This document shows positions 3,838 through 29,694 of a stretch of 32,000 bases of DNA, piece by piece (position 1 is the stretch's first letter; each line of letters begins with the position of its first letter). A program made the position numbers and the translations under genes. A model generated the notes under the pieces. The model saw only the letters and a program-made list of their open reading frames with translations, was not told the origin of the DNA and did no database searches. The DNA is taken from contig JAQVTI010000004.1 of assembly GCA_028700115.1 (NCBI GenBank), positions 25,585 to 57,584 on the forward strand. Direction: 5' to 3'. This stretch comes from Candidatus Iainarchaeum sp. Its GTDB lineage: Archaea > Iainarchaeota > Iainarchaeia > Iainarchaeales > CSSED10-239.

Positions 3838-3918
3838 AATTAATTCCTTTAAAAATTGTAAAATATAAAATATTTATAATCTATTATATTTATAATTGTT
3901 TTGTATATTTTTATAAAT

Positions 3919-4650
3919 ATGAATTTATTATATTTACCAATAATTATTATAACTATATTAATTTTAATAATAATTTCTATTCAAGATATTAAAAAAAGAG
4001 AAATTAATATATTTTATTTAATTTTTTTAGTGATTTTTAGTATTATTTATTTATGGGTTTTTATTTTTAAAAATGATTTAAATTTATGGTATTCTTATTT
4101 TTATCAATTAATAATTATTTTTGTATTTTTATTAATAATTTTTATATTAGGTAAACTAAGTAAATTTATATATATTGGAGAAGGAGATTTATATACTTTA
4201 TTTGCATTAAGTTTTACAAATATTTTCACTGAATTTTATATTTTAAGTATAATTATTTTATCTTTATTTATAACATTATTAATACCTTTATTTTTATTTA
4301 TATATAATTTATCTACATTTAATTTTCCAAAAAAACATGGTTTTTTTAAATCTATTATTTTAATGTTTTTAGGAATTAATATAAATATTAAAAAATTAAA
4401 TAACTTTTATTATTCTTTAGAAAAATTTTCCTTTAAAAATAATAAATTAAAATATATTATTTCTTTAAAACCAAATATATCTCCTGATAAAGAAATTAAA
4501 CAATTAAAAGCTTTTTCTAAAATACATAATATTAAGACAATATGGGTTTCTCCTTTAGTTCCTTTTGTAGTATCTATTACTTTAGCATATATTTTTATGT
4601 TTATTTTATCTTTTTATAATATTTTTAATATATTTATTTTCTTTTTATAG
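3919..4650 (+). CDS. archaeal prepilin/preflagellin peptidase (A24 family, FlaK/PibD-like)
   Basis: Polytopic membrane protein. The first catalytic Asp context is ISIQDIKKREI (D23 counted from the ATG at 3919) and the second is in YIGEGDLY (GxGD). An archaeal-type C-terminal extension is present. The ORF opens at 3901 (TTG) and the first ATG is at 3919. Confidence 0.75.
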   Translation: MNLLYLPIIIITILILIIISIQDIKKREINIFYLIFLVIFSIIYLWVFIFKNDLNLWYSYFYQLIIIFVFLLIIFILGKLSKFIYIGEGDLYTLFALSFTNIFTEFYILSIIILSLFITLLIPLFLFIYNLSTFNFPKKHGFFKSIILMFLGININIKKLNNFYYSLEKFSFKNNKLKYIISLKPNISPDKEIKQLKAFSKIHNIKTIWVSPLVPFVVSITLAYIFMFILSFYNIFNIFIFFL

Positions 4651-4767: not shown

Positions 4768-7599
4768 ATGGGTATTTTAGAAAAAATAGATATTATAGAT
4801 AAAAGAAATTCAATATCTACTAAAGATAATGTATCTAAATTATCTTTATTTGATAATATCTCAGAAAAGGATAGAAAAGTATATTCTATGGACTATACTA
4901 TAATTAAACCTTTATCAAAATTAGATGTTATTAATAAAAGTAATTTAGAAGTATCTTTAAAAAAAGATAATATTAATAATTATAATTTACCATTAGTTAT
5001 TCCTTCTGAAAAAATAATTTTTTCTAATAATTTACCATTAGTTATTCCTTCTGAAAAAATTGGTTTCTTAAATTCTAATTTTAAAGAATATATTAGTGTT
5101 TATAATAAATCTTTAAGTAAAAATAATTTTTTAAAAAAAAAAAATAAAAAAGAAAATTTAAATAATAATTATTTTATAACAGAAGAAGAACTTAAATCAA
5201 ATTTAAAATCTATAGCATATTTGTCTTTTTCTAAAGATAAATCTTCTATAAATAAGAAAACAAAATATCATTTTTCTAAAGATAATGTTGTTTCTGGAAT
5301 TAATTTTGATAAAAATAAAATTAAAGTAACAGAAGATATTGATGAGTTATTATCTGAATTAAATAAAAAGGCTTTAAATCTTGATAAAAAAGAAACTTTT
5401 TTAGAAGAATTTTCATTTTTAGAATCTAATCCAAAAGTTAATAAAATATCTTTAGATAATTATAAAATAAAACATCTTTATTCTAAAATAGACCAAATTT
5501 ATGAGAATATGGATAACTTAAATGTATTAGATCAAAGTTCTTTTTCTAAAAAAAATTTTATTAAAAATGATTTAAAAGATAAAAAAACAAATATAGAATC
5601 TAAAATAGGTATTTTTGAAGAAATTAAAGTCCCAGATATTTTTGTAATAAAAGATGATTCTAATAATTTAGAAGAAGTAATATCAAATGAATTTTCTAGT
5701 TATGAAAAGGATATTTCAAAAAAATCTACTATTCCTTTTTTTATATCTAAAGATAATGTATTAGATTTATCTGATGTTGTTTATAATTATATAAATAATT
5801 CTAAAAAAAATGCTTTTAATGATCCATCTAAAAAAATAAATATAAATTTAATATATAATAAAGCATTAAAAGATGATAATTATCTAAAAAATTTACTTTT
5901 AAATACAAAAAATACAACACAAATAAATAAAGAAAATGAAACTTTAAAAAATATTGAAAATAAATCAAAATTTTCTAAAAAGTCATTATTTAAAAATAAT
6001 ATTTTTAAAAAAGACAAATCTTTACAAGTTAATTTAAATGATTCTAATAAAAATTTAAATAATAAAAATTTAAATAATAAAAATTTAAATAATAAAAATA
6101 GATCTCAAAAATCAAATTATAAATTAAAGCCAAAATCAAATATAGATTATATTTTGCCAGTAAATGATTCTTCAAAAAATTTTGTAGTTAATAATTTTGA
6201 AAAGTCTATATCTCAAGATTTAATTTATTCTTTACCAATAAAAAATATAGATTTTTCTCAAAATAAAATTTATGAAAAATATTCTTTAGATGATTTTACT
6301 TTTGTAAATATTTATTTTGATAATTCTATAGGGCTTGTATATGATTTAATACAGCCAGAACTTAATAATAATCAACAAAAGTTATTTAATCAAATAAAAG
6401 ATATGTTTTATAATAATATAGATAAAGATTATTTTTATTTTAAAGGAGATTCTCATAAAATAAAAGAATATATTTCTAAAATATATGATGTTACTTTAAA
6501 TAAATTATCTTTTAAAATTAATTCTTTAGAAAGAAAACTTTTTTTAAAATTTATTCTTAGTGATTTTTCAGGTCTTGGTTTACTTTCAAGTTTATTAGAT
6601 GATTATAAAATTATTGAAATAAGTTGTAGTGGAGAAAATTCTTATTTATATGTGTATCATATAGAATATGGTCTTTTAAAAACAAATATTATATTTGAAG
6701 ATATTTTTAAATTAAATGAATTTGTTTTAAATCTTACAAAAAATATGGGGTTATATATTAGTTCTACAAATCCAATAATTGATGGATATCTCCCAAATGG
6801 TTATAAAGTAGAAGGAATTTATTCTACTGGAGATAGTAGTAGTAGAGGGTCTTCTTTTATTATTAAAAAATACTTGCAAAAATCAATAACTCCATGTGGT
6901 CTTGTAAATATAGGTGTTGGAATAAATGTTATTTTTGCATATTTTTGGCAAGCTATTGAAAATAAATATAAAATAATTATCACTGGAGAAGATGATAGTT
7001 TTATTATATATAATTCTATTGCTTTATTTTTCCCTCAAAAAAGAATTGTAAGTATACAAGATTATGATAAAATAATTTTACCACATAAAGAATGGGTTAA
7101 AAGAAAAGTATCTAAAAATGATGGGATTACAAAAAAAATATTAATTAATCAAACAAATTCTGAAAGACCAAATTATATAATACTTGATGTTTTTCAGAAA
7201 GATTTATTTAATTCTCAATGGTATAATATAGATTTATTTACTTGCCCTAAAAAAATACTTCCAGAAATAATAGAAAATCTAAATTCTGTTAATCAAAAAG
7301 CAATTATAATAGATATTAAGAGAATAAATTTTGGATATAGAGAATTAATAGAATTTAACACAGTTTTAGAAATTAATTCTAATCAAAAAAAAATATTTGA
7401 ATTTATTGTAAAAGATAAAGAATACCATGTAAATTTATTAAATTCTGATTTTAATATTATAGATATTAAAAATAAAGAGAAAGTTATAAATTGGTTATTA
7501 GAATCAAATATTTTTGATTATAAAGATTTTAATAATATTGTAAATGAATATTATATAGATAAAGATAATATTTTAAAAAAACTTGGAGTTGATAAATAA
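4768..7599 (+). CDS. FlaI/GspE-family secretion-ATPase homologue with degenerate nucleotide-binding motifs and a ~500-aa low-complexity N-terminal extension
   Basis: The C-terminal ~440 aa align with FlaI-type ATPases (IIEISCSG...YVYH..YG, NPIIDGYLPNG, SRGSSFIIKKY, AYFWQAIENKYKIIITG). The Walker A position reads GEDDSFIIY, Walker B reads RPNYIILDVFQKD, and the His box is absent. No GK[ST] occurs anywhere in the protein. Confidence 0.75.
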   Translation: MGILEKIDIIDKRNSISTKDNVSKLSLFDNISEKDRKVYSMDYTIIKPLSKLDVINKSNLEVSLKKDNINNYNLPLVIPSEKIIFSNNLPLVIPSEKIGFLNSNFKEYISVYNKSLSKNNFLKKKNKKENLNNNYFITEEELKSNLKSIAYLSFSKDKSSINKKTKYHFSKDNVVSGINFDKNKIKVTEDIDELLSELNKKALNLDKKETFLEEFSFLESNPKVNKISLDNYKIKHLYSKIDQIYENMDNLNVLDQSSFSKKNFIKNDLKDKKTNIESKIGIFEEIKVPDIFVIKDDSNNLEEVISNEFSSYEKDISKKSTIPFFISKDNVLDLSDVVYNYINNSKKNAFNDPSKKININLIYNKALKDDNYLKNLLLNTKNTTQINKENETLKNIENKSKFSKKSLFKNNIFKKDKSLQVNLNDSNKNLNNKNLNNKNLNNKNRSQKSNYKLKPKSNIDYILPVNDSSKNFVVNNFEKSISQDLIYSLPIKNIDFSQNKIYEKYSLDDFTFVNIYFDNSIGLVYDLIQPELNNNQQKLFNQIKDMFYNNIDKDYFYFKGDSHKIKEYISKIYDVTLNKLSFKINSLERKLFLKFILSDFSGLGLLSSLLDDYKIIEISCSGENSYLYVYHIEYGLLKTNIIFEDIFKLNEFVLNLTKNMGLYISSTNPIIDGYLPNGYKVEGIYSTGDSSSRGSSFIIKKYLQKSITPCGLVNIGVGINVIFAYFWQAIENKYKIIITGEDDSFIIYNSIALFFPQKRIVSIQDYDKIILPHKEWVKRKVSKNDGITKKILINQTNSERPNYIILDVFQKDLFNSQWYNIDLFTCPKKILPEIIENLNSVNQKAIIIDIKRINFGYRELIEFNTVLEINSNQKKIFEFIVKDKEYHVNLLNSDFNIIDIKNKEKVINWLLESNIFDYKDFNNIVNEYYIDKDNILKKLGVDK
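4983..5072 (+). repeat. 45-nt tandem duplication inside a CDS (NLPLVIPSEKI x2)
   Basis: The 33 nt taatttaccattagttattccttctgaaaaaat at 4983-5015 recur exactly at 5028-5060. Confidence 0.9.
6046..6099 (+). repeat. 15-nt tandem repeat aataaaaatttaaat, about 3.6 copies (NKNLN repeats) inside a CDS
   Basis: Exact copies at 6046-6060, 6061-6075 and 6076-6090, plus a partial copy to 6099. Confidence 0.9.
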
Positions 7600-8447
7600 T
7601 GTTTGGTAAAATATTATCACATATTTCTTTATTTTTATTTAAAGATATATTTATTAAATTACAAGATAATTTTAAAAATTTTTCAAAAGTTCTAAATTAT
7701 ATAAAAGTAAATGAAAATGCAGTATCTTATCTTTCAAATATTTTATTTATTTCTTTATTTTTAGTTATTGTTTTAGAGTTTATCTTTATATTTTTAATGG
7801 TTAAATTAAATATATATTTTAATATATTTAGTTTTTTTATAACTATATTTATATCATTTACAATTGGTTTAATGATTTTCTTAGTACTTTTTAAATTCCC
7901 ATATTATCTTTTAGATATAAAAAAAACAGAACTTGATATTGAATTTGAAAATAGTCTTAAACATTTATCTGTAATTTGTGATAATAAATTAAGTGTTTTA
8001 GATGTTTTAAGAATAATTATATCTATTGAAGATAATTATTTAATTTCTGAAAATACAAAAAAAATAATTACTAATTCTATAGATGATTTAAATTTAAAAA
8101 ATTCATTATTATATATTTCTGAAAATACCTTTTCAGAAATTGAAAAATTTTTTTTAATAAAATTAGTAGATGTTTTAGATAAGAAAGATAATTTAGAAGA
8201 TGTTGTTTTAAATTATTTAAATGAAATAGAATCTTCTAGAAAAGAATTAAGTGAACAAAGAAAAAGTAAAATAAATATTTTATTTCAAGTTAATATATTT
8301 ATTTTTTTAATTATAATAATATTATTAATTATAGTTTTTATAGTTCCAATAACTAATCAAACTATAAGACAATTATTAGGTTTTATTGCAATAATTCTTC
8401 CAATTATTGAATTTATTTTGATTTTAATTCTTTATAATAAAAATTAA
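7599..8447 (+). CDS. half-size FlaJ/TadB/TadC-like (T2SS-F type) pilus platform membrane protein
   Basis: N-terminal TM helices, a ~110-aa cytoplasmic helical domain (LKHLSVICDNKLSVLDVLRII...) and C-terminal TM helices. The start overlaps the upstream stop (TAATG at 7597-7601), which suggests coupling to the ATPase-like gene. Confidence 0.55.
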   Translation: MFGKILSHISLFLFKDIFIKLQDNFKNFSKVLNYIKVNENAVSYLSNILFISLFLVIVLEFIFIFLMVKLNIYFNIFSFFITIFISFTIGLMIFLVLFKFPYYLLDIKKTELDIEFENSLKHLSVICDNKLSVLDVLRIIISIEDNYLISENTKKIITNSIDDLNLKNSLLYISENTFSEIEKFFLIKLVDVLDKKDNLEDVVLNYLNEIESSRKELSEQRKSKINILFQVNIFIFLIIIILLIIVFIVPITNQTIRQLLGFIAIILPIIEFILILILYNKN

Positions 8448-8475
8448 AATATTTATTTAAATTTATATAAATTAA

Positions 8476-9612
8476 ATGAGAATTTTTATGGATAAAAAGA
8501 AATTTTTGAAAATAAATACTTTTATTTTAAAAAATGAATATCAATTATTAACTTTATCTGGATTTCTATCTGGGCTTTTAATTTTATTTATTACAAATAA
8601 ATTTTTTTTTAAAAGTGAACTTTATTATTTATTATTCTTTTTTGGAATTATAGTTTCTTTTTTTGGGTTTGTTTTAGAATATTTTATTAAAAAATATAAA
8701 ACTAAATCTTTAGAAAAAGTATTTAGTTATTTTTTATCTGATTTATCTAGAGATTATAAAAAAACAAAAAATCTATCATTATCTTTAATTAATATTTCTA
8801 ATTCAAATGTTTATAAGGGGATAGATAATGATATTAAAAAAATATCTAATAGAGTATCTTGGGGGGATAGTTTTGAAAATTCTTTAAAATGTTTGAATTT
8901 TTCTTTAGATAGTGATATTTTAAATCATACTTTAATATTATTTAATAATTTAAAAAATACTTCACTTTCTTTAGATCAGATTTTTTTAAAAATTTCAAAA
9001 GATATAAATCTCTTTAGAGAAGATAAACAAAAAAAAAGATATTTTAGTCATTTATTTAATTTATCTATTGTGTTTTTTATAGTTTTTATATTTGTTTTAC
9101 TTTATCTAGATATATTAATTGGAAGTAATTTTTTATGGTATAATTATTTAGATTCTATGAATAGAATATTTTTTGATAACTTTATATTATATATTGCAAT
9201 TGTTTTATCTTTTTTTACAGCTTTTGTTATAAGTACTATAAAAGATAATAAATTTGGGGGTTATCTGAAATATATTGGAATTTTTTTTATAATTATTATA
9301 ATTTTATTTCAAATTGTAATTCCAAAACCAGAAGCTCAAGAAGTTTTAATTAGTACTATTAATTATATGAATCTTGAAGATATAGATTATTTTTATTTAG
9401 AAAATATTATATCTATACAATCTTTAAGTTCCAAATATATTTCAGAAAATACAACTGTAGATAGAGTTTATTTTAAACCTTTAGATGTAAATTTGTGTAA
9501 AGATACTTCTTGTTTAGAATATACTATTTTAATTAAAGATGCTTCTTTTTTTAATTTTGAATTAATTAAAGTAGACAAAAATATAATTATTTTATATGAA
9601 TATAATTATTGA
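8476..9612 (+). CDS. second half-size FlaJ/TadB/TadC-like platform membrane protein with a C-terminal extracytoplasmic extension
   Basis: Same TM, cytoplasmic-domain, TM layout as the upstream gene, plus a ~85-aa Cys-containing tail. An alternative ATG lies at 8488. Confidence 0.5.
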   Translation: MRIFMDKKKFLKINTFILKNEYQLLTLSGFLSGLLILFITNKFFFKSELYYLLFFFGIIVSFFGFVLEYFIKKYKTKSLEKVFSYFLSDLSRDYKKTKNLSLSLINISNSNVYKGIDNDIKKISNRVSWGDSFENSLKCLNFSLDSDILNHTLILFNNLKNTSLSLDQIFLKISKDINLFREDKQKKRYFSHLFNLSIVFFIVFIFVLLYLDILIGSNFLWYNYLDSMNRIFFDNFILYIAIVLSFFTAFVISTIKDNKFGGYLKYIGIFFIIIIILFQIVIPKPEAQEVLISTINYMNLEDIDYFYLENIISIQSLSSKYISENTTVDRVYFKPLDVNLCKDTSCLEYTILIKDASFFNFELIKVDKNIIILYEYNY

Positions 9613-9649
9613 ATTTATAAATAAAATTATTTTAAAAAATTGAATTAAT

Positions 9650-9997
9650 ATGATTTATAAAATTGAAAAAAACAAAATTATTTTTAAAAAAATTAAACTC
9701 GCATTAAATCTTGGACAAATGAGAGGCTTAATGTTTTACCCAAGATCTAAATTTAATTTTGCATTAATTTTTGATAGAAGTTATGAAGACAAAATTAATT
9801 CTTCTCTTCATATGTTTTTTGTATTTTTTCCAATTGATGTTTTATTTTTAAATTCTAATAAAGAAATAGTTGATATTAAATTTAATTTTAGACCTTTTAG
9901 ATTTTATATTCCTAAAGAAAAAGCAAGATATGTTATTGAACTTCCTTGTTTAAAAAAAAATAAGCAATTAAAAATTAAACAAAAAGTTAATTGGTGA
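9650..9997 (+). CDS. DUF192 family protein
   Basis: MRGLMFYPR...LHMFFVFFPIDVLFLNSNKEIVDI...ARYVIELP matches the DUF192 pattern (GLM, Mxxxxx[PI]xD[IV]xF, YVLE). Confidence 0.6.
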   Translation: MIYKIEKNKIIFKKIKLALNLGQMRGLMFYPRSKFNFALIFDRSYEDKINSSLHMFFVFFPIDVLFLNSNKEIVDIKFNFRPFRFYIPKEKARYVIELPCLKKNKQLKIKQKVNW

Positions 9998-10087
9998 TTT
10001 TATAAGTTTATATAAATCTATTCCATTTTAACATTTTTTAAAATTTTTAAACTTTGCAAAGACTTTTAAATATTTTATATAATATTT

Positions 10088-10097
10088 TTTTATAAAT
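10088..10097 (+). promoter_or_regulatory. TATA-box-like element ttttataaat upstream of pilin gene 1
   Basis: The same 10-mer precedes all three pilin-like genes. It starts 27 nt (gene 1), 33 nt (gene 2) and 31 nt (gene 3) upstream of the ATG. Confidence 0.45.
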
Positions 10098-10114
10098 AGA
10101 GATTTAGATTTATT

Positions 10115-13100
10115 ATGATATATAATTTTAATAAAAAAATATCAATATCCCCATTAATTGCAGTAATTTTAATAATTTTAGTTGCATCAGTTTTAACTGG
10201 TGCAATTTTATCTTGGTCTAAATCCTCTATTAAAAATTCACTTTCAGATTCTTCTCAAATTTCTAATCAAAGTTTAAATATTTTAGAATGTAAGGATATT
10301 TATCTAAAAGTAGAGTCATTTACATATTATTCTGATTTAAATTATTTTAATTTACTTGTAACAAACACATCTAGTTATAAATTACAAAACCCACAAATAA
10401 CTATTTTAGGGATTGATAGTTTGGGAGAAGATATTAGACTTACAGGTAATTTTAATTCATCTTTAGATAAAGGAGAAACTAAAGTTTTTTCTACAAACTC
10501 AGTTGATTTTTATTTTTCTTTTCAAACACATGAAGTTTCTGATCTAAATTCAGATAATATTTCAGAAATTACATTTGTTTTTCAAACATGCCCTACAAAT
10601 ATTTTATATTTTAAAGATTGGGATATTATAGGTGCGATTGTAAGTGGTGAAACAACTCCAGTTGCTTTATTTGTTTTAGGTTTACATTATCTTTTTAATG
10701 AAGGAAGTGGAACTATTGTTAATGATTTATCTGATAATTCTTTAGATGGAGATTTAAATAGTGGTTTTTGGCAAACAAATGAAGTTGATATTAATTTTTT
10801 AAAATTAGATAATAGTTATAGGGATTCTTTAATAGTTGATGCAAATTTAAATGGTCTAGAAGATGATTCTGGATATAGTTATACTTTTACAAATTCAGGA
10901 TCTGTTGCTTCAATTAACCAAAATGGAGAGGCTATGGCTAGAGATTTTGATGGGGTTAGTGATTATTTAATAATTAATTCTCCAATTAAAGAAGATAAAT
11001 ATCCATTAACAGTTTCATTTTGGATAAATGCAGATTCATGGACTACAAATTATTATGCAGCAGGAGATTTATATTATTCTTGGCTTATAAATAAAAGGGA
11101 TAATGGTACAGATAGATGTTGGCAGTTTATGTTGTCTGATGGATATCCAAGAGTTGATATGTTTAATGATGCAGGAGATGGAATTGATGGAGATTTACAA
11201 TCTAATCAAATTATAACTTTAGAAGAATGGGTGCATATTCTTTTAACAACTGGAGGTCAAACAGGAGATTCTGCAAAAATATATCAAGATGGTGAATTAG
11301 TTTCTGAAGTAACTTTAACAGGAGATAGGCATTTAAGTTCAAGAGAAGTTGTAATTGGTGCTGCTGGTTGGTCTTTTGATTTATTTAATTTTGATGGAGA
11401 TATTTCTGATGTTAAGATTTGGAATAAAGAGCTTAGTGAAAGTGAAGTTAAAAGTGTGTATAATGAACAAAAATCAGATTATGTTACTTCAAATGATTCT
11501 AATAGTTTAGATTTGTCTGATGGGTTTACAATAAATGCATGGGTTAATACAAACAATTTAGATGAACAAACAATTGCTTCAAAAGAAAGTTTTAATACAA
11601 GTTTGTCTTCTGCAGATTTTGAAACATTTGATTTACAAACAATAAGTTCTAGTTATACTGGTTATTTTGATGAATATTTCGATGGGAGATATGTTTATTT
11701 TTTACCTTATCATAATGGATCTGTATATCATGATAAATTTTTTAGATATGATACTACAAAAGATTTTATTTCTTCTTCAAGTTATGAATTTTTTGATTTA
11801 AGTACAGTTAATTCAAAATGTACTGGATTTACAGGAATTTCTTCTGATGGTGATTATTTATATTTAAGTACCTATTCAGGAAGTATTAATGGATGTTTTT
11901 TAAAATATGATTTAAATTCTTCTTTTACATCTTCATCTAGTTATGAATTTATGGATTTAACTACTTTAGATTCTAGTTATAAAGGTTTATTTAGTAGTTT
12001 ATTTGATGGAAGATATGTTTATATGTTAGTATATAATAATGGTAGTTATACTGGTAAGATCATAAGATATGATACTTTATCTGATTTTACATCTTCATCT
12101 AGTTATATTGTTTTTGATTTATCTACAATTAATTCTTTGTATAAAGGATATGCTTCAATGATTTTTGATAATAGATATATTTATTTTATACCTTTTCATA
12201 ATGGAGTTAGACAGGGTAATTTTTTAAGGTATGATACATATGAATCTTTTACAGATTCATCAAGTTATGAATATTTTAATTTAGAAACTATAAATTCTAA
12301 TTATAAAGGATTTATTGGAGGTGTTTTTGATGGAACTTATGTTTATCTTGTGCCTTATACAAATGGTGATTATTTTTCAAGTGTTGTTAGATATGATACT
12401 TCTTTAGATTTTGATAATTCTAAAAGTTATTCTGTATTTGAATTAACTAATTTAAATTCAAATTATAAAGGATATAGAAGTGCTGTTTTTGATGGGAGAT
12501 ATGTTTATTTTGTGCCTCATAATAATGGATCCTATCATGGAAATTTAATAAAATATGATATTTCTAAAGATTTTTTAGAAAATTCTAGTTATTCTGTATT
12601 TGATACTTCTAGTTTAAATTCTGGTTTTAAAGGTTTTTTTGGTGGGCTTTATGATGGTAAATATTTATATTTGCAAGGTTATAGTGATCGATCTACTGGA
12701 ATTGTTGGAAGATATGATACTAGAGAAAATAATAATTTTAATTTTAAAATAAATTCATCTTCTCAAGATGGTATTAGTCAATCTAAACAAGGAATTAAAT
12801 TTAATTTAGATACAAATGAAGGTTATTATCAATTGTTTGATAATAATTATACTGAAACTGGTTGGCATATGTATTCTGCAAGTTATGATAATAATTTAAT
12901 GAAAATATATTATGATGGTAATCTTTCAAAAAGTAAACAAGTAAGTGGAGCTATAACTAGTACCATTTTAGATGATTTAATAATTGGAAAAACAAATACT
13001 GGTTTTTATGGACTTGATGGAAATATTTCTGATTTTAAAATATATGAAGAAGCTTTATCTGATGAAAATATTTCTGATTTATATGATCAAAATATAAATG

Positions 13101-13765
13101 ATTATCCTTCTAGTCCTTTTGGTTCACATCCAACTTTAGAAGAAGATTTAGTTTCTTATTATTCATTTGATGGAAACGCAGAAGATTCAAAAGGAACAAA
13201 TGATGGAATTTCTAATAGTGTTAATTATTCAACTATGAATGGAATAATAAATAGTGGTGCTGAATTTAATTCTAACAATGATAGTTATATTCAATATTCT
13301 TCAATAATAACTCCTAAAGGTGAAAAAAGTATTTCTATTTGGTTAAAAACTTCTCAAACTAGTTGGTGTAGTATTTTTAAAAATAATAGTGATGGTACTC
13401 AAAGTTATGGTGTTTCAATATATGGTTCTGGACATGTTGAACTTTCTCAAGCATCTTCAATTAAAGTTTTAGAAATTTCTCCTGTAGGTGATTTAAGAGA
13501 TGGAAATTGGCATCATTTAGTGTTTACTTGGGATGGAACTACTAATTCAGATACAGTTAAATTATATATTGATGGAATTTTAAATAATCAAAATACTGCA
13601 AATAATACTGAAACAGTAACTCCTTCATATAATTTAATTATAGGTAGATATACTAATGTTTATGATTATGATGGAGATATAGATGAAGTTGGTATTTGGG
13701 AAAGAGCTTTAACTCAAAAAGAAGTAATGGATATTTACAATCTTGGAAATGGGCTTTCTAGATAA
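10115..13765 (+). CDS. modular type IV pilin-like surface protein: class III signal peptide and pilin head, three LamG-like domains, 7 x ~54-aa repeat block
   Basis: N-terminus NKKIS/ISPLIAVILIILVASVLTGAILSW (archaeal Pilin_N type). Three LamG-type endings: FDGDISDVKIWNKELSESEV, LDGNISDFKIYEEALSDENI and YDGDIDEVGIWERALTQKEV. Confidence 0.75.
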   Translation: MIYNFNKKISISPLIAVILIILVASVLTGAILSWSKSSIKNSLSDSSQISNQSLNILECKDIYLKVESFTYYSDLNYFNLLVTNTSSYKLQNPQITILGIDSLGEDIRLTGNFNSSLDKGETKVFSTNSVDFYFSFQTHEVSDLNSDNISEITFVFQTCPTNILYFKDWDIIGAIVSGETTPVALFVLGLHYLFNEGSGTIVNDLSDNSLDGDLNSGFWQTNEVDINFLKLDNSYRDSLIVDANLNGLEDDSGYSYTFTNSGSVASINQNGEAMARDFDGVSDYLIINSPIKEDKYPLTVSFWINADSWTTNYYAAGDLYYSWLINKRDNGTDRCWQFMLSDGYPRVDMFNDAGDGIDGDLQSNQIITLEEWVHILLTTGGQTGDSAKIYQDGELVSEVTLTGDRHLSSREVVIGAAGWSFDLFNFDGDISDVKIWNKELSESEVKSVYNEQKSDYVTSNDSNSLDLSDGFTINAWVNTNNLDEQTIASKESFNTSLSSADFETFDLQTISSSYTGYFDEYFDGRYVYFLPYHNGSVYHDKFFRYDTTKDFISSSSYEFFDLSTVNSKCTGFTGISSDGDYLYLSTYSGSINGCFLKYDLNSSFTSSSSYEFMDLTTLDSSYKGLFSSLFDGRYVYMLVYNNGSYTGKIIRYDTLSDFTSSSSYIVFDLSTINSLYKGYASMIFDNRYIYFIPFHNGVRQGNFLRYDTYESFTDSSSYEYFNLETINSNYKGFIGGVFDGTYVYLVPYTNGDYFSSVVRYDTSLDFDNSKSYSVFELTNLNSNYKGYRSAVFDGRYVYFVPHNNGSYHGNLIKYDISKDFLENSSYSVFDTSSLNSGFKGFFGGLYDGKYLYLQGYSDRSTGIVGRYDTRENNNFNFKINSSSQDGISQSKQGIKFNLDTNEGYYQLFDNNYTETGWHMYSASYDNNLMKIYYDGNLSKSKQVSGAITSTILDDLIIGKTNTGFYGLDGNISDFKIYEEALSDENISDLYDQNINDYPSSPFGSHPTLEEDLVSYYSFDGNAEDSKGTNDGISNSVNYSTMNGIINSGAEFNSNNDSYIQYSSIITPKGEKSISIWLKTSQTSWCSIFKNNSDGTQSYGVSIYGSGHVELSQASSIKVLEISPVGDLRDGNWHHLVFTWDGTTNSDTVKLYIDGILNNQNTANNTETVTPSYNLIIGRYTNVYDYDGDIDEVGIWERALTQKEVMDIYNLGNGLSR
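11618..12727 (+). repeat. seven tandem ~54-aa (~162-nt) coding repeats, possibly a beta-propeller
   Basis: Units begin at aa 502, 557, 610, 664, 718, 772 and 826. Consensus: Y.xFDLxTxNSxYKGxxxxxFDGRYVYxVPxxNGxxxGxxxRYDTxxDFxxSSS. Confidence 0.8.
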
Positions 13766-13772
13766 AAATATA

Positions 13773-13782
13773 TTTTATAAAT
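13773..13782 (+). promoter_or_regulatory. TATA-box-like element ttttataaat upstream of pilin gene 2
   Basis: It lies inside a ~85-nt block (13766-13850) that is nearly identical to 15042-15125. Its centre is about 27 nt before the ATG at 13806, consistent with a leaderless or very short-leader mRNA. Confidence 0.5.
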
Positions 13783-13805
13783 ATTTTCTTTTATCTTAAT
13801 AGTAT

Positions 13806-15041
13806 ATGTTATATAAAGTTAAATCAAAAAAAGCAATTTCTCCTGTAATTGCAATTATTTTTATAGTTCTAATTGCAGCGATTTTAACTGGAGCTATGCT
13901 TTCTTGGTCTAAATCTTCAACTAAAGATAAATTAGAAATAACTTCTAAAGAATCAAGACAAATAGTTGATGATTTAACTTGTAGTGATATAGAATATTCA
14001 ATTGAAGATGTTGTAATTGATACTAGAACAAAAGATTTTAATTTTTTATTTTTTAATAATTCAACAATTAAACTTTATAACCCAAAGATAACTATTTTAG
14101 GAAAAAGTTTATCTGGTGAAGACTTAAGATTTGTTGGAGAGTTTAATTCTTCTATAGATAAAATGGAAAGTAAAACTTTTTCAACAACTTCTGATTTTAA
14201 TTATTCTTATCAATCTCATGAAACTGATCAATTAGATGTTGATTCAATTGAAGAAATTACAATTGTTTTTAATACATGTCCAAATAAAATATTTTTAATA
14301 GATACATATGAAACAATTACTTCTGCAGAACCATCTCCTTATTTTAGCGGGCATTCAACTTTAGATAATAATATAGTTGCATATTATTCATTTGATGGAA
14401 ATGCAGAAGATCAAGTTGGAACTTGTGATGGAACAGTTAGTGGTGCATTAAATAGTTCTAGTTATGGTTTAATTAATCAAGGTTATAGATTTGATGGGGA
14501 TTGGGATTATATTAATTTAGGAAAAAATAATGCAATTGAATCTTTATTTGATCCAGGAAATAGTTTTTCTATATCTTTTTGGATGTATTCTTTAGAGAAT
14601 GTAACTTCTAACTGGAGATGGGTTTTAAGTAAAGCATATACTTCTCATACACCTCCATATTATCAATTTGATTTTAAATTAAATAGTATTGGATCTATGT
14701 CTTCTGTACTTTATAATGATTCTGTATCTATTTATTTAGGAGATTCTGATTCTAGTTATGAAGAATATAATAATTGGAATTATGTTGTAATTACAGTTGA
14801 TTTAACTAATAATATATATAATATATATATTAATAATAATTTATTAGTAACAGATACTACTCCTGAAGGAACTTATACAAATTATGATACTGAACTTGCA
14901 ATTGGTAGAAATATTAAATTTAATAATAATTCAGTTTATGATTTTTATGGTTATATTGACGAAGTTGGAATTTGGGAAAGAGAATTAACCCAAGATGAAG
15001 TTTCTGCATTATATAACTCTGGAAATGGTCTTTCTAGATAA
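13806..15041 (+). CDS. modular type IV pilin-like surface protein: class III signal peptide and pilin head plus one LamG-like domain
   Basis: KSKKA/ISPVIAIIFIVLIAAILTGAMLSW; the head module is paralogous to genes 1 and 3. LamG features are YYSFDGNAED, FSISFWMY and YGYIDEVGIWERELTQDEV. Confidence 0.75.
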   Translation: MLYKVKSKKAISPVIAIIFIVLIAAILTGAMLSWSKSSTKDKLEITSKESRQIVDDLTCSDIEYSIEDVVIDTRTKDFNFLFFNNSTIKLYNPKITILGKSLSGEDLRFVGEFNSSIDKMESKTFSTTSDFNYSYQSHETDQLDVDSIEEITIVFNTCPNKIFLIDTYETITSAEPSPYFSGHSTLDNNIVAYYSFDGNAEDQVGTCDGTVSGALNSSSYGLINQGYRFDGDWDYINLGKNNAIESLFDPGNSFSISFWMYSLENVTSNWRWVLSKAYTSHTPPYYQFDFKLNSIGSMSSVLYNDSVSIYLGDSDSSYEEYNNWNYVVITVDLTNNIYNIYINNNLLVTDTTPEGTYTNYDTELAIGRNIKFNNNSVYDFYGYIDEVGIWERELTQDEVSALYNSGNGLSR

Positions 15042-15048
15042 TGATATA

Positions 15049-15058
15049 TTTTATAAAT
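15049..15058 (+). promoter_or_regulatory. TATA-box-like element ttttataaat upstream of pilin gene 3
   Basis: Same conserved cassette as at 13773-13782. Its centre is about 26 nt before the ATG at 15080. Confidence 0.5.
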
Positions 15059-15079
15059 GTTTTCTTTTATTTTATTATT

Positions 15080-17731
15080 ATGTTATGTAAAGTTAAATCA
15101 AAAAAAGCAATTTCTCCAATAATAGCAGTAATTTTAATTATTTTAATTGCATCTGTTTTAACTGGAGCTATTTTATCTTGGTCTAAATCTTCAACTAAAG
15201 AAAATATGGCTTTAACCTCTAAGGAGTCAAGAGAAATTGTAAGTGATTTAACTTGTAATGATTTAGTTTATTATATTGATTCTATAGATTTTAGATATGC
15301 AACAAATGATTTTACTTTTTTAATAGTAAATAATTCTTCACAAAAACTTTTTTTTCCAAAAATAACTGTTTTTGGAAAAACTTTATCTGGGGAAGATATT
15401 AAATGGGTTGGAGAGTTTGAAGATTATATAGATAAAGCACAAACTAAATCTTTTTTAACATCTTCTGAGAATTTCACATATACTTCTCAAACACATACAA
15501 CAAATATAGATGAAAATAGTTTAAGTGTAAATCTTGTTTTTCAAACATGTCCTAATAAAATTATAACAATTAATAGTTATGATGTTATTTATCCTGTTTG
15601 TGGAGATTCTTTATGTGAAGGAGATGAAACTTCTGAAAATTGTTATTCAGATTGTGGAAGTTGTGGGGATAGTGTTTGTTCTGCTCCTGATGAAAATTTA
15701 GATACTTGTGCAATTGATTGTGCGGTTTGTGGAGATGGCATTTGTTCTTCAAGTGTAGAAAACACAGCTTCATGTTTACAAGATTGTCCTCCTAATTATT
15801 TTTCTTCAACTTGGAATACAGCAACTACTGGATATGGTTCAAGTGCTTCTAATCAAATAAATCTTCCTTTAGTTTCAAGTGGAACTTATGATTTTAATGT
15901 AAATTGGGGAGATGGTTCAGTTTCACAGATTACTTCATATAATGATCCTGATAAAACACATACTTATGCTTCTTCAGGGATTTATGATGTGAATATGTGG
16001 GGAACTATTGAAGGTATTTCTTTTGAATATTCTAGTGATAGGTATAAATTAACTGAAATTTCTCAATGGGGAGATTTTAGTCCTAAAAATAGTAAATTTA
16101 GTTATTGTGAAAATTTAGATATTACAGCAACTGATATTTTGGATTTAACTGGAGTTACAAGATTAATTTGTTTTTTTTGTAATTGTTCAAGTTTAACTCA
16201 AATTCCAAATATAGACCAATGGGATGTTTCAAATATTACAGATATGTCTAGTTTGTTTGCTGGTACTTCTTTTAATCAAGATCTTTCTTCTTGGGATGTT
16301 TCAAATGTTACTGATATGTATGGGATGTTTTCAAATACAAATAATTTTAATCAACCTTTAAATAGCTGGGATGTTTCTAGTGTAACTGATATGGGATCTT
16401 TATTTTTAAATGCAGATGCTTTTAATCAACCTTTAAATAACTGGGATGTTTCTAATGTTACTAATATTAATAATATGTTTAATAATGCAGATGCTTTTAA
16501 TCAACCTTTAAATAATTGGGATACATCAAATGTAACTACACTATATGGAACTTTTGCTGAAACTTTAGCATTTAACCAATCTTTAAATGATTGGAATACA
16601 TCTAAAGTAACAACTTTTGAAAAAATGTTTTATGGAAGTGAATCTTTTAATGGTGCAGTTAATAATTGGGATACATCTAATGTGACTACCATGAATGGTA
16701 TGTTTCAAAATGCTTATGTTTTTAATCAACCTTTAAATGATTGGAATGTTTCAAATGTAACTAATATGGGTTATATGTTTAAAGAAGCATATGCTTTTAA
16801 TCAAGATTTAGATCAATGGGATATTTCTAGTTTAAGTAATATTTTTCAAATGTTTTCAGGAGCAATTAATTTTGATGGAAATATTTCAACATGGGATGTT
16901 TCAAATATAACTTATCTTGGTGATTTATTTAATTGTAATATATATAGTCAACATCTTGGTACTTTTATTACAGGTTGTCATTTTAATCAAGATATTTCTT
17001 CTTGGGATGTTTCAAATGTTACTAGTATGTCTGGTTTGTTTGAAAATCAAGTAGATTTTAATCAACCTTTAAATGATTGGGATGTTTCAAATGTAACTAA
17101 TTTGAGTGGTATGTTTAATGGTGCTAAATCTTTTAATCAACCTTTAAATGATTGGAATACTTCTAAAGTAACTAATATTAGACATATTTTTTATAATGCA
17201 AATTCATTTAATCAAGATTTAAATAATTGGGATACTTCAAATGTTTCAGATATGTCTTATGTGTTTATGATGGCTAATTTATTTAATGGAGATGTATCTA
17301 CATGGGATACTTCAAATGTAACTTCAATGGATTGGATGTTTTATTCTGCTGATTCATTTAATCAACCTTTAAATAATTGGGATACTTCTAAAGTTACTGA
17401 AATGGATTGGATGTTTTATTCTGCAGATAATTTTAATCAACCTTTAAATAACTGGGATGTTTCAAATGTAACTGATATGAGTTTTATGTTTAATGATGCT
17501 AAATCTTTTAATCAAGATATAGGTGATTGGAATACTTCTAAGGTTACTAATATGAATAGTATGTTTTATTCTTTAGATTATTTTAATCAAGATCTTTCTT
17601 CTTGGGATATTTCTAAAGTGACTTCTAGTTTTACTGCCTTTTTTTATGGAACTAGTGTGTCAGCAGCAAACTGTCAAGCAATGGCAACTGCTTGGGGAAA
17701 AACTTGTGCAGATTTAGGATGTACTTGTTAG
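15080..17731 (+). CDS. modular type IV pilin-like surface protein: class III signal peptide and pilin head, 3 CGDxxC Cys-rich repeats, DUF285/BspA-like repeat array
   Basis: MLCKVKSKKA/ISPIIAVILIILIASVLTGAILSW. The ORF opens at 15041, but the conserved promoter and 5' cassette shared with gene 2 place the start at 15080. Downstream are a VNWGDGS...HTY segment and then repeated FNQPLNNWDVSNVTxMxxMF units. Confidence 0.75.
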   Translation: MLCKVKSKKAISPIIAVILIILIASVLTGAILSWSKSSTKENMALTSKESREIVSDLTCNDLVYYIDSIDFRYATNDFTFLIVNNSSQKLFFPKITVFGKTLSGEDIKWVGEFEDYIDKAQTKSFLTSSENFTYTSQTHTTNIDENSLSVNLVFQTCPNKIITINSYDVIYPVCGDSLCEGDETSENCYSDCGSCGDSVCSAPDENLDTCAIDCAVCGDGICSSSVENTASCLQDCPPNYFSSTWNTATTGYGSSASNQINLPLVSSGTYDFNVNWGDGSVSQITSYNDPDKTHTYASSGIYDVNMWGTIEGISFEYSSDRYKLTEISQWGDFSPKNSKFSYCENLDITATDILDLTGVTRLICFFCNCSSLTQIPNIDQWDVSNITDMSSLFAGTSFNQDLSSWDVSNVTDMYGMFSNTNNFNQPLNSWDVSSVTDMGSLFLNADAFNQPLNNWDVSNVTNINNMFNNADAFNQPLNNWDTSNVTTLYGTFAETLAFNQSLNDWNTSKVTTFEKMFYGSESFNGAVNNWDTSNVTTMNGMFQNAYVFNQPLNDWNVSNVTNMGYMFKEAYAFNQDLDQWDISSLSNIFQMFSGAINFDGNISTWDVSNITYLGDLFNCNIYSQHLGTFITGCHFNQDISSWDVSNVTSMSGLFENQVDFNQPLNDWDVSNVTNLSGMFNGAKSFNQPLNDWNTSKVTNIRHIFYNANSFNQDLNNWDTSNVSDMSYVFMMANLFNGDVSTWDTSNVTSMDWMFYSADSFNQPLNNWDTSKVTEMDWMFYSADNFNQPLNNWDVSNVTDMSFMFNDAKSFNQDIGDWNTSKVTNMNSMFYSLDYFNQDLSSWDISKVTSSFTAFFYGTSVSAANCQAMATAWGKTCADLGCTC
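15599..15793 (+). repeat. three tandem ~21-22-aa Cys-rich coding repeats (CGDxxC-x7-8-C-x3-C)
   Basis: CGDSLCEGDETSENCYSDC, CGDSVCSAPDENLDTCAIDC and CGDGICSSSVENTASCLQDC. Confidence 0.8.
16201..17645 (+). repeat. about 19 tandem ~25-aa (~75-nt) DUF285-type coding repeats (bacterial surface protein 26-residue repeat)
   Basis: 19 occurrences of W[DN][VTI]S[NKS] spaced 24-25 aa apart, with one longer unit. Most carry an N-[VI]-T sequon. Confidence 0.85.
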
Positions 17732-17766
17732 AAATTAATTTGTTTTTCTAACATTTTTTTAATTTT
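17727..17766 (+). terminator. hairpin plus T-run terminator-like element after pilin gene 3
   Basis: Perfect 8-bp stem gttagaaa (17727-17734) with tttctaac (17745-17752) and a 10-nt loop, followed by attttttttaatttt. The stop codon sits in the stem. Confidence 0.45.
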
Positions 17767-18026
17767 ATTTCAGAAAGTAAAGACTATACCTTATATAAAC
17801 ATTTTCCTGGATAATATATATCGGTAAATCTATTACCTAATTTCACAAATCAAAAAAGGCAGAAAAGAGGAAGGCGAGAACAAACTGTCTTAATCTTTAT
17901 AAAATCTAGGCAGATCCCTGGATCTCCCTTTTCTCACTTTATTTAGGTTTTTTCCTACTATTTTTTATCTATTTATAAACTTTATCTTATATAATAATCT
18001 TTAATTATATTAAAATTATTTAAAAA

Positions 18027-18032
18027 AGGTGA
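18027..18032 (+). promoter_or_regulatory. Shine-Dalgarno-like aggtga upstream of the DUF4349 gene
   Basis: GGTG-containing motifs lie 3-5 nt before the ATGs at 18037, 19452, 21450 and 22108. Confidence 0.45.
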
Positions 18033-18036
18033 AAAT

Positions 18037-18918
18037 ATGAGTTTTAAAGAACAAACAAATAGATTAAAAGAAAACTGGTTTATTATTCTTTTAATTGTTG
18101 TGCTTTTATTTGTAATTGTTCCTTTTATCATAGGAATTGGTGGAATCACAAACTACTCAGCAAGAGATATGGTTGCATCATATGATCAAGGATTTACAAA
18201 TGAAGCAATGGGTAAATCTAGTTATTATTATGGAGAAACAGACTTTGCTCCTGAAATAACTGATAGAATTGTTACAATTTCTTCAAGTTTATCTTCTGAA
18301 GTAGAATACAAAGATTTTGAATCTAAGGAAAATGAATTTAAAGGAATTTTATCAGAATATGATACATTTATTTTAAATGAAAATGTATATGAATCAGGTT
18401 TTGGTAAAAAGAAATATATGAATGGTTCTTATACAATTAAAGTTAATTCAGAAGAATATTTAAATTTAGTAGATGAACTTAAAACTATTGGAGAAGTTAA
18501 AAGCTTTTCTGAAAATAAAGAAGATATAACAGGGAGTTATACAAATAAGAATATTGAATTAGAACTAGAAAAAGAAAAACTAAGAAAATATAATGAGTTA
18601 TATGATACTAATGATATTAGTATGGAAGACAAACTTGATTTAACAGATAAGATTTTCTATCAAGAAAGAAGAGTTAAATACTTAGAAGATTCAATAAACA
18701 ATATGGATAAGAGAGTAGAATATAGTACAATTAACTATTCTTTAAGAGAAAAACAATCAAGTTATGCAGACGTTATACTTGTTAAGTTTTCTGAACTGAT
18801 TAAAACTTTAGTGTCAAGTTTTAATGTCTTATTACACATTATTTTTGCAGTTGTGCCATTTGTAGTTTTAACACTTCTAATTGTATTATTTGCAAGAAGA
18901 CATAAGAAGAGAAGATAA
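18037..18918 (+). CDS. DUF4349-like membrane-anchored protein
   Basis: N-terminal TM helix, central coiled-coil segment (EDITGSYTNKNIELELEKEKLRKY...RVKYLEDSINNMDKRVEYSTINYSL) and C-terminal TM helix, as in DUF4349 proteins. Confidence 0.5.
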   Translation: MSFKEQTNRLKENWFIILLIVVLLFVIVPFIIGIGGITNYSARDMVASYDQGFTNEAMGKSSYYYGETDFAPEITDRIVTISSSLSSEVEYKDFESKENEFKGILSEYDTFILNENVYESGFGKKKYMNGSYTIKVNSEEYLNLVDELKTIGEVKSFSENKEDITGSYTNKNIELELEKEKLRKYNELYDTNDISMEDKLDLTDKIFYQERRVKYLEDSINNMDKRVEYSTINYSLREKQSSYADVILVKFSELIKTLVSSFNVLLHIIFAVVPFVVLTLLIVLFARRHKKRR

Positions 18919-18945
18919 TTCTTCTCTTTTTCTCCCTTTTTTTTT
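18904..18945 (+). terminator. hairpin plus T-run terminator-like element
   Basis: Stem aagagaag (18907-18914) with cttctctt (18921-18928), extendable by A-T and G-T pairs, then a T9 run at 18937-18945. Confidence 0.4.
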
Positions 18946-19267
18946 AAAAATAGTTTAAAGGCATACTATATGGTCTAGATGAAACATTATCTAAATCATT
19001 TTCTGCATTATTTATTTTAAGTTTTATAAAATTAGATAATTCTTTTTTGTTTTTTAAAATATATTCTTTATTTATTTTAGATTGTATTATTCCTACTTTA
19101 ATTTTTAGTTTTTTATTAATTTTTGTAATAACATATACTTGTAAATTATTTTCTTGTTCAATATATATATTTTCATCTAATTTTATTGTTTTTTTAGATT
19201 TTTTTAGTTTTTTTATATTTTTTTTTTCAATTTCTAAGTTATAAAAGCCTTTTATTTTTAAATTCAT
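18944..19267 (-). CDS. hypothetical small basic protein
   Basis: A 107-aa ORF convergent with the upstream gene. No recognisable motif. Coding status rests only on ORF length in an AT-rich background. Confidence 0.35.
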   Translation of the reverse strand: MNLKIKGFYNLEIEKKNIKKLKKSKKTIKLDENIYIEQENNLQVYVITKINKKLKIKVGIIQSKINKEYILKNKKELSNFIKLKINNAENDLDNVSSRPYSMPLNYF

Positions 19268-24032: not shown

Positions 24033-24187
24033 TATTTTTCTTGGTCATTTACTGTGTTTAAAAATATATATATATTTAAATAAATATATTATTAATGTGA
24101 AGTTAAATTTTTAAAAAGACGATAATTTGGCTTCAATTCCCTTCTTGGGATTATTATATAATTTCTTAAAAAAAGTTAAAAAAATAT

Positions 24188-27548: not shown

Positions 27549-27646
27549 ATATATTTAAAAGCTTTTTAGATTATGATTTGATATATATTTAAAATTTTTA
27601 TAATAATATTATTTAGAAAATATATTATAATTTATATGGTAATTAT

Positions 27647-28798: not shown

Positions 28799-28840
28799 TG
28801 TATTTATTTTAAAAAATATGATTTTTTATAGGTTAAAAAT

Positions 28841-29578: not shown

Positions 29579-29694
29579 ATTATAAAAATTTATTATAGGG
29601 TGATTTTATAAAAAAAATAAGTTTATTAAAGTTTTTTCAAAATATATTTTTTTATAAGACTAATTTAAATAGAAAGTTATATATTTTAGATTTT

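Follow-up and report, generated by a model that had tools for sequence, protein, structure and literature searches.

Candidate modular type IV pilins with diverse predicted adhesin cargo in a DPANN archaeon

Analysis of a 32,000-nt stretch of DNA from the DPANN archaeon Candidatus Iainarchaeum sp. (Iainarchaeota, kingdom Nanobdellati; assembly GCA_028700115.1, contig JAQVTI010000004.1; hereafter the window, to which positions refer unless another locus is named) uncovered three tandem genes whose products, P1, P2 and P3, open with the same ~170-aa module, here called the head, and continue into different domains. We consider it probable that these proteins are archaeal type IV pilin-family carriers fused to different adhesin or lectin modules and assembled for display or attachment, and the sequence comparisons support an archaeal (Iainarchaeota) variant of the modular-pilin principle of bacteria. 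DPANN archaea are thought to rely on physical attachment to their hosts, and the molecules responsible are largely unknown. An earlier survey of DPANN genomes found pilus machinery, with no pilins annotated, and assumed that LamG surface proteins are exported by the Sec pathway (PMC9563170). The locus described here offers candidate DPANN pilins and links LamG, CBM and PARCEL adhesins directly to type IV filament machinery.

Three tandem proteins share a head and differ in cargo

The three candidate modular pilins and their parts are laid out as follows.

10115-13765, plus strand: P1, 1216 aa, head followed by LamG1, LamG2 (split by repeats) and LamG3; matched by the head profile hidden Markov model (HMM) at E = 1e-49
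10115-10624, plus strand: P1 head, with leader MIYNFNKKIS (10115-10144), hydrophobic helix and beta-sandwich with Cys59 and Cys159
11582-12721, plus strand: seven tandem 53-54-aa repeats (P1 residues 490-869), nested within the second LamG
13277-13726, plus strand: LamG3, the best-scoring Laminin_G_3 stretch of P1 (residues 1055-1204)
13806-15041, plus strand: P2, 411 aa, with head (13806-14315), linker of ~15 aa and one LamG (~14505-15005)
15080-17731, plus strand: P3, 883 aa from 15080 (896 aa from the first ATG at 15041)
15080-15589, plus strand: P3 head
15599-15787, plus strand: three 4-Cys repeats of P3
15818-16003, plus strand: PKD/PamR-like stretch of P3
16220-17677, plus strand: 19 PARCEL/DUF285 repeats of P3

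The first ~170 residues of P1-P3 align with only one or two single-residue gaps, at 40-45% identity to P1 and 49-57% to P2, and pairwise BLASTP E values between the proteins (5e-28 to 6e-51) lie far past chance, which bears out the common N-terminal region proposed in a preliminary description made from the sequence alone. Its list of shared motifs holds in most parts: SWSKSS, Cys59 (in ILECKDI, LTCSDI or LTCNDL), a GED motif, and TCP with Cys158 are common to all three heads, whereas NPxITILG is exact in P1 and P2 only, P3 reading FPKITVFG.

The head N-terminus follows the pattern (M)LxKVKSKKA-ISPxIAxIxIxLIAxxLTGAxLSW, that is, a short basic leader, a small residue and 22 hydrophobic residues. 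P2 and P3 read MLxKVKSKKA|ISPxIA before the hydrophobic stretch, and P1 reads KKIS|ISP. Archaeal class III signals carry Gly, Ala or Ser at position -1, with haloarchaeal sites of the form RA|VS (PMC4371748), and each of P1-P3 has a charged leader ending in such a residue and then ~20 hydrophobic residues. In both 8rey_M and Iho670 the mature N-terminus aligns to the Ile of ISP, which places the predicted cleavage at KKA|ISP. The bacterial motif G|F/M-x-x-x-E (IPR012902) is absent, the sequence being KKA|ISPVIA, and no N_methyl family was detected in Pfam and NCBIfam scans.

Across 41 sequences of the head family (described below), C59, N84 and C158 are invariant. A second pair of Cys positions is filled at both sites in 21 heads, is empty at both in 11 and is never filled singly; the number of Cys per head is nearly always two or four. 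This pairing pattern supports the disulfide-stabilised head that had been suggested from two conserved Cys residues. The invariant Asn84 (N-x-S) was considered as an N-glycosylation site and dropped, as the wider pilin family has N-x-G there and four of 32 heads have N-P-S/T.

Past residue ~172, the three proteins are unrelated by domain content, in agreement with the early reading of three LamG domains plus repeats in P1, a single LamG in P2, and Cys repeats plus a DUF285 array in P3. P1 matches Laminin_G_3 (PF13385) in four stretches (E = 1.7e-56), read as three domains, the second of which is split by repeats. LamG3 of P1 is homologous to the LamG of P2, which has one Laminin_G_3 domain, and both end in GNGLSR. 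P3 carries three 4-Cys repeats, the PKD/PamR-like stretch and 19 PARCEL/DUF285 (PF03382) repeats of 25 aa (DUF285 E = 5e-208). Linkers between head and cargo are ~15 aa or absent, and the P3 head abuts its Cys-rich repeats directly. From the domain families (lectin, CBM, PARCEL) we infer an adhesive role for the cargo.

The second LamG of P1 has a nested architecture over residues ~455-990 (11477-13084), with LamG-like sequence before residue 490 and after residue 870 and intervening repeats that match no Pfam family. An (R/K)YD(T/L/I) motif returns every 53-54 residues in this block, which may possibly form a seven-bladed propeller.

The P2 protein is identical to NCBI MDD3975928.1, which comes from a metagenome-assembled genome labelled 'Candidatus ainarchaeum sp.', a label that we read as Iainarchaeum, and the same P2 sequence was recovered in independent assemblies. 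For P3, comparison with homologues favours the start used in the preliminary description, 15080 (MLCKVKSKKAISP), over the first ATG, at 15041, and indicates that 15080 is the real start. The ATG at 15041 overlaps the P2 stop codon and would prepend a hydrophobic stretch of 13 aa (MIYFINVFFYFII) to the conserved MLCKVKSKKA. The guanine-plus-cytosine (GC) content of the window is very low (14-27%). It is 25-27% over the three pilin genes (10000-19000), against 14-20% in most flanking DNA, a rise that could reflect either the Gly/Ser/Asp/Thr-rich composition of the cargo or a foreign origin of the cargo. An archaeal L10e encoded in the window agrees with the assignment to Iainarchaeum, and so do the peptidase of archaeal type and the tiny genes rich in AT.

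Profile comparisons place the head among archaeal type IV pilins

The structure of the P2 head was predicted with AlphaFold2 (AF2) from an alignment of five sequences and then from one of 32. The smaller alignment gave a mediocre predicted local distance difference test score (pLDDT) of 73, and the larger one a pLDDT of 90.1 and a predicted template-modelling score (pTM) of 0.70, with a continuous helix at residues 12-50 (39 residues) and a beta-sandwich at 64-171. The model thus shows the hydrophobic N-terminal helix and the beta-rich domain anticipated for a pilin-like head. Archaeal pilins and archaellins are built in this way, with a long helix leading into a beta-sandwich, and the globular part of the head is modelled as an immunoglobulin (Ig)-like sandwich of the archaeal type, without the bacterial alpha-beta roll.

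When the 32-sequence head profile was compared with all sequences in the PDB, the top five matches were all archaeal type IV pilins (9myg, 8gi2, 8fk7, 8rey and 8fj5); Iho670 was matched as well, and almost all of the PDB matches are archaeal pilins. These direct matches are marginal (E = 6e-4 to 3e-2) and lie mainly in the helix. A second route runs through an alignment of 58 related small (~150-aa) archaeal proteins, A7, of which 22 match Pilin_N and seven match Arch_flagellin. With hhalign, the head profile (A5) matches A7 with 99.8% probability (E = 1e-28) over 150 columns, which take in the C-terminal CP motif as well as the Cys and the Asn. A7 in turn matches 8fk7 at E = 1.3e-16 (positions 2-132), 8rey at 7e-8, 8fj5 and 9myg at ~9e-6, and Iho670 (5kyh) at 3e-5. 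The A7 members were picked from head-profile matches and so are not an independent sample, whereas the link from A7 to the solved pili is independent. Homology of the head to subunits of solved type IV filaments is therefore supported transitively, via the small-pilin family, and these profile comparisons assign the head to the superfamily of archaeal type IV pilins.

Curated models add to this picture. Pilin_N is found in four of the 41 head-family members and in the 22 related small proteins, with E down to 1e-6. P0001, a head-only orthologue 77% identical to the P1 head, scores 25.9 bits with TIGR02537, above the cut-off of 20, and matches the Sulfolobus pilin UpsA (E = 2e-5).

These data bear on a different account of the N-terminus, in which it is an ordinary Sec signal anchor or a cleavable Sec peptide, the sandwich is an Ig-like spacer, and P1-P3 are surface paralogues outside type IV filaments. 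The LSWS|K sequence loosely fits the -3/-1 rule of signal peptidase I, curated pilin models stay below threshold on the window proteins themselves, and generic Ig-like sandwiches dominate the fold search. Such an anchor does not account for K-K-A-I-S-P standing before a 22-residue hydrophobic stretch that extends into a 39-residue helix, for profile matches in the PDB that are nearly all archaeal pilins, for homology to small pilins over the full length of the head (E = 1e-28), or for linkage to prepilin peptidase and platform genes that is kept in four loci. We regard this account as very improbable and treat the head as a pilin-family domain.

Heads occur with and without cargo, and cargo is exchanged at the head boundary

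The extent of the family was assessed with an exhaustive HMM search with the head over 1.84 billion representative sequences, which returned 222 matches, 41 of them strong (E < 1e-10) and most of the others ~150-aa proteins. The family comprises ~40 clusters at 50% identity. A word-indexed search was insensitive (two matches, then one), and a scan of a genome collection with the five-sequence head alignment gave a single locus. The head is N-terminal (residues 1 to ~175) in 40 of the 41 strong representatives, the 41st (P0042) being an N-terminally truncated fragment.

Among these 40, 15 are head-only proteins of 163-179 aa and 25 bear cargo of 96 to 2694 extra residues. The cargo repertoire, which the preliminary description had proposed to list by such a search, is diverse and rich in lectin and adhesin domains: Laminin_G_3 (12 members), CHB_HEX_C_1/Fn3_assoc (nine), Glug, PKD, RCC1, NHL, CBM_4_9, CBM_5_12, Fibrinogen_C, Gly_rich_2 and PT-HINT, with more than ten distinct families in all. 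One member of 3356 aa includes a PilY-like DUF2341 domain. The idea that head-only forms are truncations at contig ends was rejected: they stop 0-7 residues past the matched head, and two were confirmed in intact loci.

Head genes are tandem at every locus examined. The locus with the DUF2341 protein (L006, 1-22167; JGI 3300029959) has three giant head genes in a row, encoding 3356 aa (CHB_HEX_C_1/Fn3_assoc plus DUF2341), 2867 aa and 1063 aa (RCC1 repeats). Another locus (L009) encodes at 8283-9650 a protein of 455 aa that weakly matches an FGE-sulfatase domain and has only the class III signal and the alpha-1 helix (HMM positions 4-49), without the beta-sandwich; its gene sits between two head-only pilin genes, and the architecture is bindosome-like, within the same lineage.

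Two pairs of close relatives locate the boundary of the module. The window is syntenic with locus L001 at 75-86% nucleotide identity, and homology spans the P1 head, halts at 10624, picks up again ~10 nt short of the P1 stop codon and runs on into the P1-P2 intergenic region. The L001 orthologue of P1 is P0001, a head-only protein of 172 aa, with the 3.1-kb cargo absent; L001 also lacks a DUF285 pilin. Position 10624, where the preliminary description had placed the end of the P1 head, is also where head-only family members naturally end. Between the two loci, flanking proteins are 73-91% identical and heads 62-77%, and LamG cargo only 35%. The carrier is conserved, whereas the cargo has been replaced or diverges fast relative to the head.

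In the second pair, P0005 (174 aa, head-only, from three NCBI metagenome-assembled genomes) and P0154 (1295 aa, with head, LamG and CBM_4_9) have heads that are 98% identical (167/170) and the same flanking genes, and are separated by a 3.25-kb cargo deletion. The junction lies in a common AAA(T)TGTGAT, ~10 nt of microhomology that encodes Cys-Asp both where the head closes and close to the C-terminus of the cargo. The last ~30 cargo codons are retained 3' of the new stop codon at the head-only locus, and from this surviving remnant we conclude that the head-only form arose when the cargo was deleted. In evolution the head behaves as an autonomous unit, found also as a free pilin of ~170 aa, and close relatives have exchanged or lost cargo at its boundary. 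Together with the class III N-terminus and the homology traced through A7, these free heads and boundary indels favour the modular-pilin concept put forward at the outset. The faster divergence of cargo, its exchange or loss at the boundary and the autonomy of the head suggest that the cargo set tunes binding specificity.

The same comparisons speak to the simplest reading of the three genes, as plain tandem paralogues with diverged C-termini, or products of assembly or annotation error, with no exchange of modules. They are indeed tandem, their heads are only 40-57% identical, and LamG3 of P1 is related to the single LamG of P2, both finishing in GNGLSR. Divergence from a common C-terminus would not, however, turn LamG into DUF285, which has an unrelated fold, nor place more than ten distinct cargo families behind the same head. 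The long intact open reading frames (ORFs) would be improbable by chance at ~25% GC, the same P2 sequence stands in independent assemblies, and two independent pairs of relatives show cargo indels that fall exactly where the head ends. We find it scarcely credible that the modular arrangement of P1-P3 is of this kind, and retain modular pilins as the preferred reading.

Homology between the window and L001 breaks at ~24151-24169 of the window. There, L001 (18992-19528) carries genes for 89 aa and 85 aa, the second with a weak ParE-toxin match, which probably represent a small toxin-antitoxin insertion.

Type IV filament genes lie upstream and a second system downstream

Five genes on the same strand directly precede P1-P3.

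3901-4650, plus strand: FlaK/PibD-type prepilin (class III signal) peptidase; Pfam Arc_PepC_II 44.6 bits, weak Peptidase_A24
4768-7599, plus strand: FlaI/GspE-family secretion-ATPase homologue, 943 aa, with a degenerate P-loop
7599-8447, plus strand: platform protein half 1, T2SSF/FlaJ-like; Pfam T2SSF E = 5e-7, ArlJ/FlaJ E = 2e-4
8476-9612, plus strand: platform protein half 2, T2SSF-like; Pfam T2SSF E = 8e-5, sub-threshold
9650-9997, plus strand: DUF192 protein, directly upstream of the pilin genes; Pfam DUF192 E = 6e-11

The peptidase matches NCBIfam FlaK (E = 8e-12) and the FlaK structure 3S0X (E = 2e-6), and keeps the context of the first catalytic Asp (SIQDIKKRE) and the GxGD motif as GEGD. 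The C-terminal 460 aa of the ATPase homologue match 2OAP (E = 1e-39) and FlaI 4IHQ (E = 4e-25); it has GEDDSF instead of a Walker A sequence such as GETASGKTT, of the pattern GxxGSGKTT, and has lost the Walker B Glu, with the rest of the fold kept. Orthologues are found in L001 (4892-7579), L005 (4575-7514) and L009 (2061-4955), and the P-loops of the window and these three read GEDDSF, GDDDNF, GDNDSF and GNDDSY. From these motifs, the protein is probably a conserved pseudo-ATPase and not an active ATPase. Its N-terminal extension of ~480 aa is K/N-rich, with NLPLVIPSEKI occurring twice and a run of NKNLN units.

The upstream gene order recurs at three related loci (L001/L002, L005 and L009/L010), followed each time by head-family genes, and the position of platform half 2 is kept in L001, L005 and L009. 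A pair of platform genes has been published as a hallmark of archaeal type IV filament (TFF) system 1 and of some DPANN loci (bioRxiv 10.64898/2026.04.22.720090; PMC4858521). The DUF192 (COG1430) gene holds the same place in L001, L002, L005 and L010, where it is split into two ORFs in L010; DUF192/COG1430 is not mentioned for type IV filament loci in Makarova et al. 2016 (PMC4858521), the one paper searched for it.

A second set of genes begins 8 kb downstream of the pilin genes.

25800-27548, plus strand: second secretion ATPase, with an N-terminal 4Fe-4S ferredoxin domain (Fer4) and T2SSE (Pfam T2SSE E = 1e-35)
27647-28798: 383-aa single-pass membrane protein of the second system
28841-29578, plus strand: membrane protein of the second system
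29695-30513, plus strand: membrane protein of the second system, T2SSF-like (Pfam T2SSF E = 6e-5)

The second ATPase has intact Walker A (GNTGSGKTT) and Walker B (PDRVIIGEIRS) motifs, and the pair at 28841-30513 resembles a split platform that would belong to a second type IV filament-like machinery. No pilin-family ORF was found near this system (25800-30513) in scans of the window. Speculatively, this ATPase could serve the pilins as an energy source in trans.

Proposed assembly and alternatives

We propose that the carrier consists of a class III signal, a long hydrophobic alpha-1 helix and an Ig-like beta-sandwich of ~110 aa held by disulfide bonds, which a short linker would tie to a binding module, either ConA-like/LamG lectins or a Cys-rich stalk of repeats with a PARCEL/DUF285 array. 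Sec would insert the precursors, and the adjacent FlaK/PibD-type peptidase would then cut between Ala or Ser and Ile (KKA|ISP), as the alignment to mature pilins suggests. The freed alpha-1 helix may let the head enter a type IV pilus or short pseudopilus on the split upstream platform, or prime one. Held off the cell, the cargo would be free to bind surfaces or glycans; in view of the DPANN lifestyle, a host cell is the most plausible target. If PilB and PilC of Streptococcus sanguinis (PMC8179133, PMC9934059) are a guide, the bulky modular subunits would sit at the tip, and cargo-less heads would form the shaft.

Several observations weigh against this scheme. We infer cleavage and filament formation of P1-P3 from their sequences, and P1, with Ser at -1 and Ile at -2 (KKIS|ISP), is less canonical than KKA|ISP. 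The window proteins score 15.3-17.3 bits with Pilin_N (PF07790) against a cut-off of 25.2, and P3 scores 18.1 bits with TIGR02537 against a cut-off of 20. The structural comparison with known pilins that the preliminary description had called for did not deliver: Foldseek of the head models against the PDB found nothing significant (best E = 2e-3 to 6e-3), and its list holds many generic Ig-like sandwiches, though the best full-length alignment is to the Pyrobaculum type IV pilus subunit 8fk7 (rank 2, E = 6e-3, not significant, 159 columns, template-modelling score (TM) 0.36-0.54 against the head models). The main difficulty is that Walker A and the Walker B Glu are lost in all four diverged orthologues of the operon ATPase (window, L001, L005 and L009), and assembly would therefore need another ATPase. 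Finally, cargo-less heads exist at related loci, but two HMMs and a motif scan found none throughout the 32-kb window, where all three pilin-family genes carry bulky cargo of 240-1040 aa, leaving the shaft without a candidate subunit in this stretch.

Some of these points, above all the degenerate ATPase, suit the main rival reading, a display system that is processed as class III and yet does not form filaments, with P1-P3 anchored by alpha-1 or built into a short bindosome-like assembly in the envelope and the head acting as a stalk. An inactive ATPase homologue is predicted in the operon, every pilin-family gene of the window has 240-1040 aa of cargo with no small subunit near, bindosome subunits set a precedent for large class III proteins (PMC4371748), and the FGE-sulfatase protein of L009 has the pilin helix without the head. 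P1-P3 nevertheless keep a complete pilin globular domain that is homologous to solved filament subunits, which bindosome proteins do not have; head-only paralogues and orthologues at related loci could build a shaft; and an intact secretion ATPase lies 8 kb downstream. We judge non-filamentous display unlikely, and hold to pilin-family carriers assembled on type IV filament machinery.

More tentatively, and with doubts that outweigh our confidence, the head family may be a lineage-specific display scaffold of DPANN archaea of the Iainarchaeota type, whose adhesin cassettes of up to ~3000 aa are gained, swapped and deleted at strain level as a switch of host or surface specificity, and whose pseudo-ATPase machinery is either energised by the nearby ferredoxin-fused ATPase or non-canonical. 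The presence and absence of cargo behind 98%-identical heads gives a testable handle on how symbionts might change binding specificity. The locus is of value for the biology of DPANN attachment, for unusually clean evidence of cargo swapping, and for the odd pseudo-ATPase in an assembly operon.

Comparison with known systems

No description of archaeal modular pilins as such was found in the literature searches made, and the closest precedents each share some of the features of P1-P3. The haloarchaeal Tat-fimbriae protein TafC (PMC11821415; NF052521) is likewise a filament-associated LamG protein in archaea, and the LamG regions of P1 and P2 resemble its LamG part (E = 3e-15 and 4e-10). The score is 56 bits against a family cut-off of 410, however, and Tat-fimbriae are Tat-dependent, not of type IV, and have no head in common with P1-P3.

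Archaeal TFF system 1 (Epd-type) and the DPANN subsystem 4A variants (bioRxiv 10.64898/2026.04.22.720090; PMC4858521), resemble the upstream genes in combining an ATPase homologue, two platform genes and a peptidase; such two-platform loci are reported in DPANN, and DUF2341, found as cargo in the head family (L006), is a further likeness. The window differs in having a FlaK/PibD-type peptidase as opposed to EppA, and an ATPase homologue without a P-loop. In the passages searched of these two sources, the ~170-aa head family, its cargo repertoire and the strain-level cargo indels are not described.

The Sulfolobus bindosome (BasEF; PMC4371748) similarly uses a class III signal on large extracellular binders, with a dedicated ATPase/platform pair, for a purpose other than pili. 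Its subunits are ABC substrate-binding proteins without a pilin domain, whereas P1-P3 keep the full head, and no substrate-binding protein family was detected in P1-P3 or in the scans of family cargo. Solved archaeal pilins (8fk7, 8rey; haloarchaeal PilA 8gi2/9myg/8fj5; Iho670 5kyh/3j1r) share the N-terminal motif and helix, and sequence homology to the head which, followed by way of the small-pilin family, reaches across the beta-sandwich. Unlike P1-P3, they are subunits of 135-165 aa (303 aa for Iho670) with no recognised foreign domain.

The nearest functional parallel lies in bacterial modular pilins, exemplified by S. sanguinis PilB, a pilin with vWA, and PilC, a pilin with a ConA-like lectin (Raynaud et al. 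2021, PMC8179133; Shahin et al. 2023, PMC9934059). In both groups a short linker connects the N-terminal pilin module with a binding domain that is autonomous, PF13385/ConA-like lectins are among the commonest modules, several members are encoded beside pilus machinery, and an adhesive role displayed on filaments is proposed. They differ in the signal, which is the archaeal KKA|ISP without the G|FxxxE N-methylation motif (IPR012902), in the globular domain, which here is a predicted Ig-like sandwich with conserved disulfides as opposed to the bacterial alpha-beta roll, and in cargo size, which exceeds 3000 aa in the head family, the most extreme multi-domain case in PMC8179133 having 860 residues. 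That survey covered IPR012902 only, without mention of archaea. P1-P3 combine a pilin module with a non-pilus C-terminal domain over a short linker, as in the definition of Raynaud et al., and lack IPR012902. Because this motif is absent and the globular fold differs, we regard P1-P3 as an archaeal analogue of the PMC8179133 set and not as members of it. The principle of a module on a pilin, so far documented for bacteria (PMC8179133), would thereby extend to archaea with a structurally different pilin domain.

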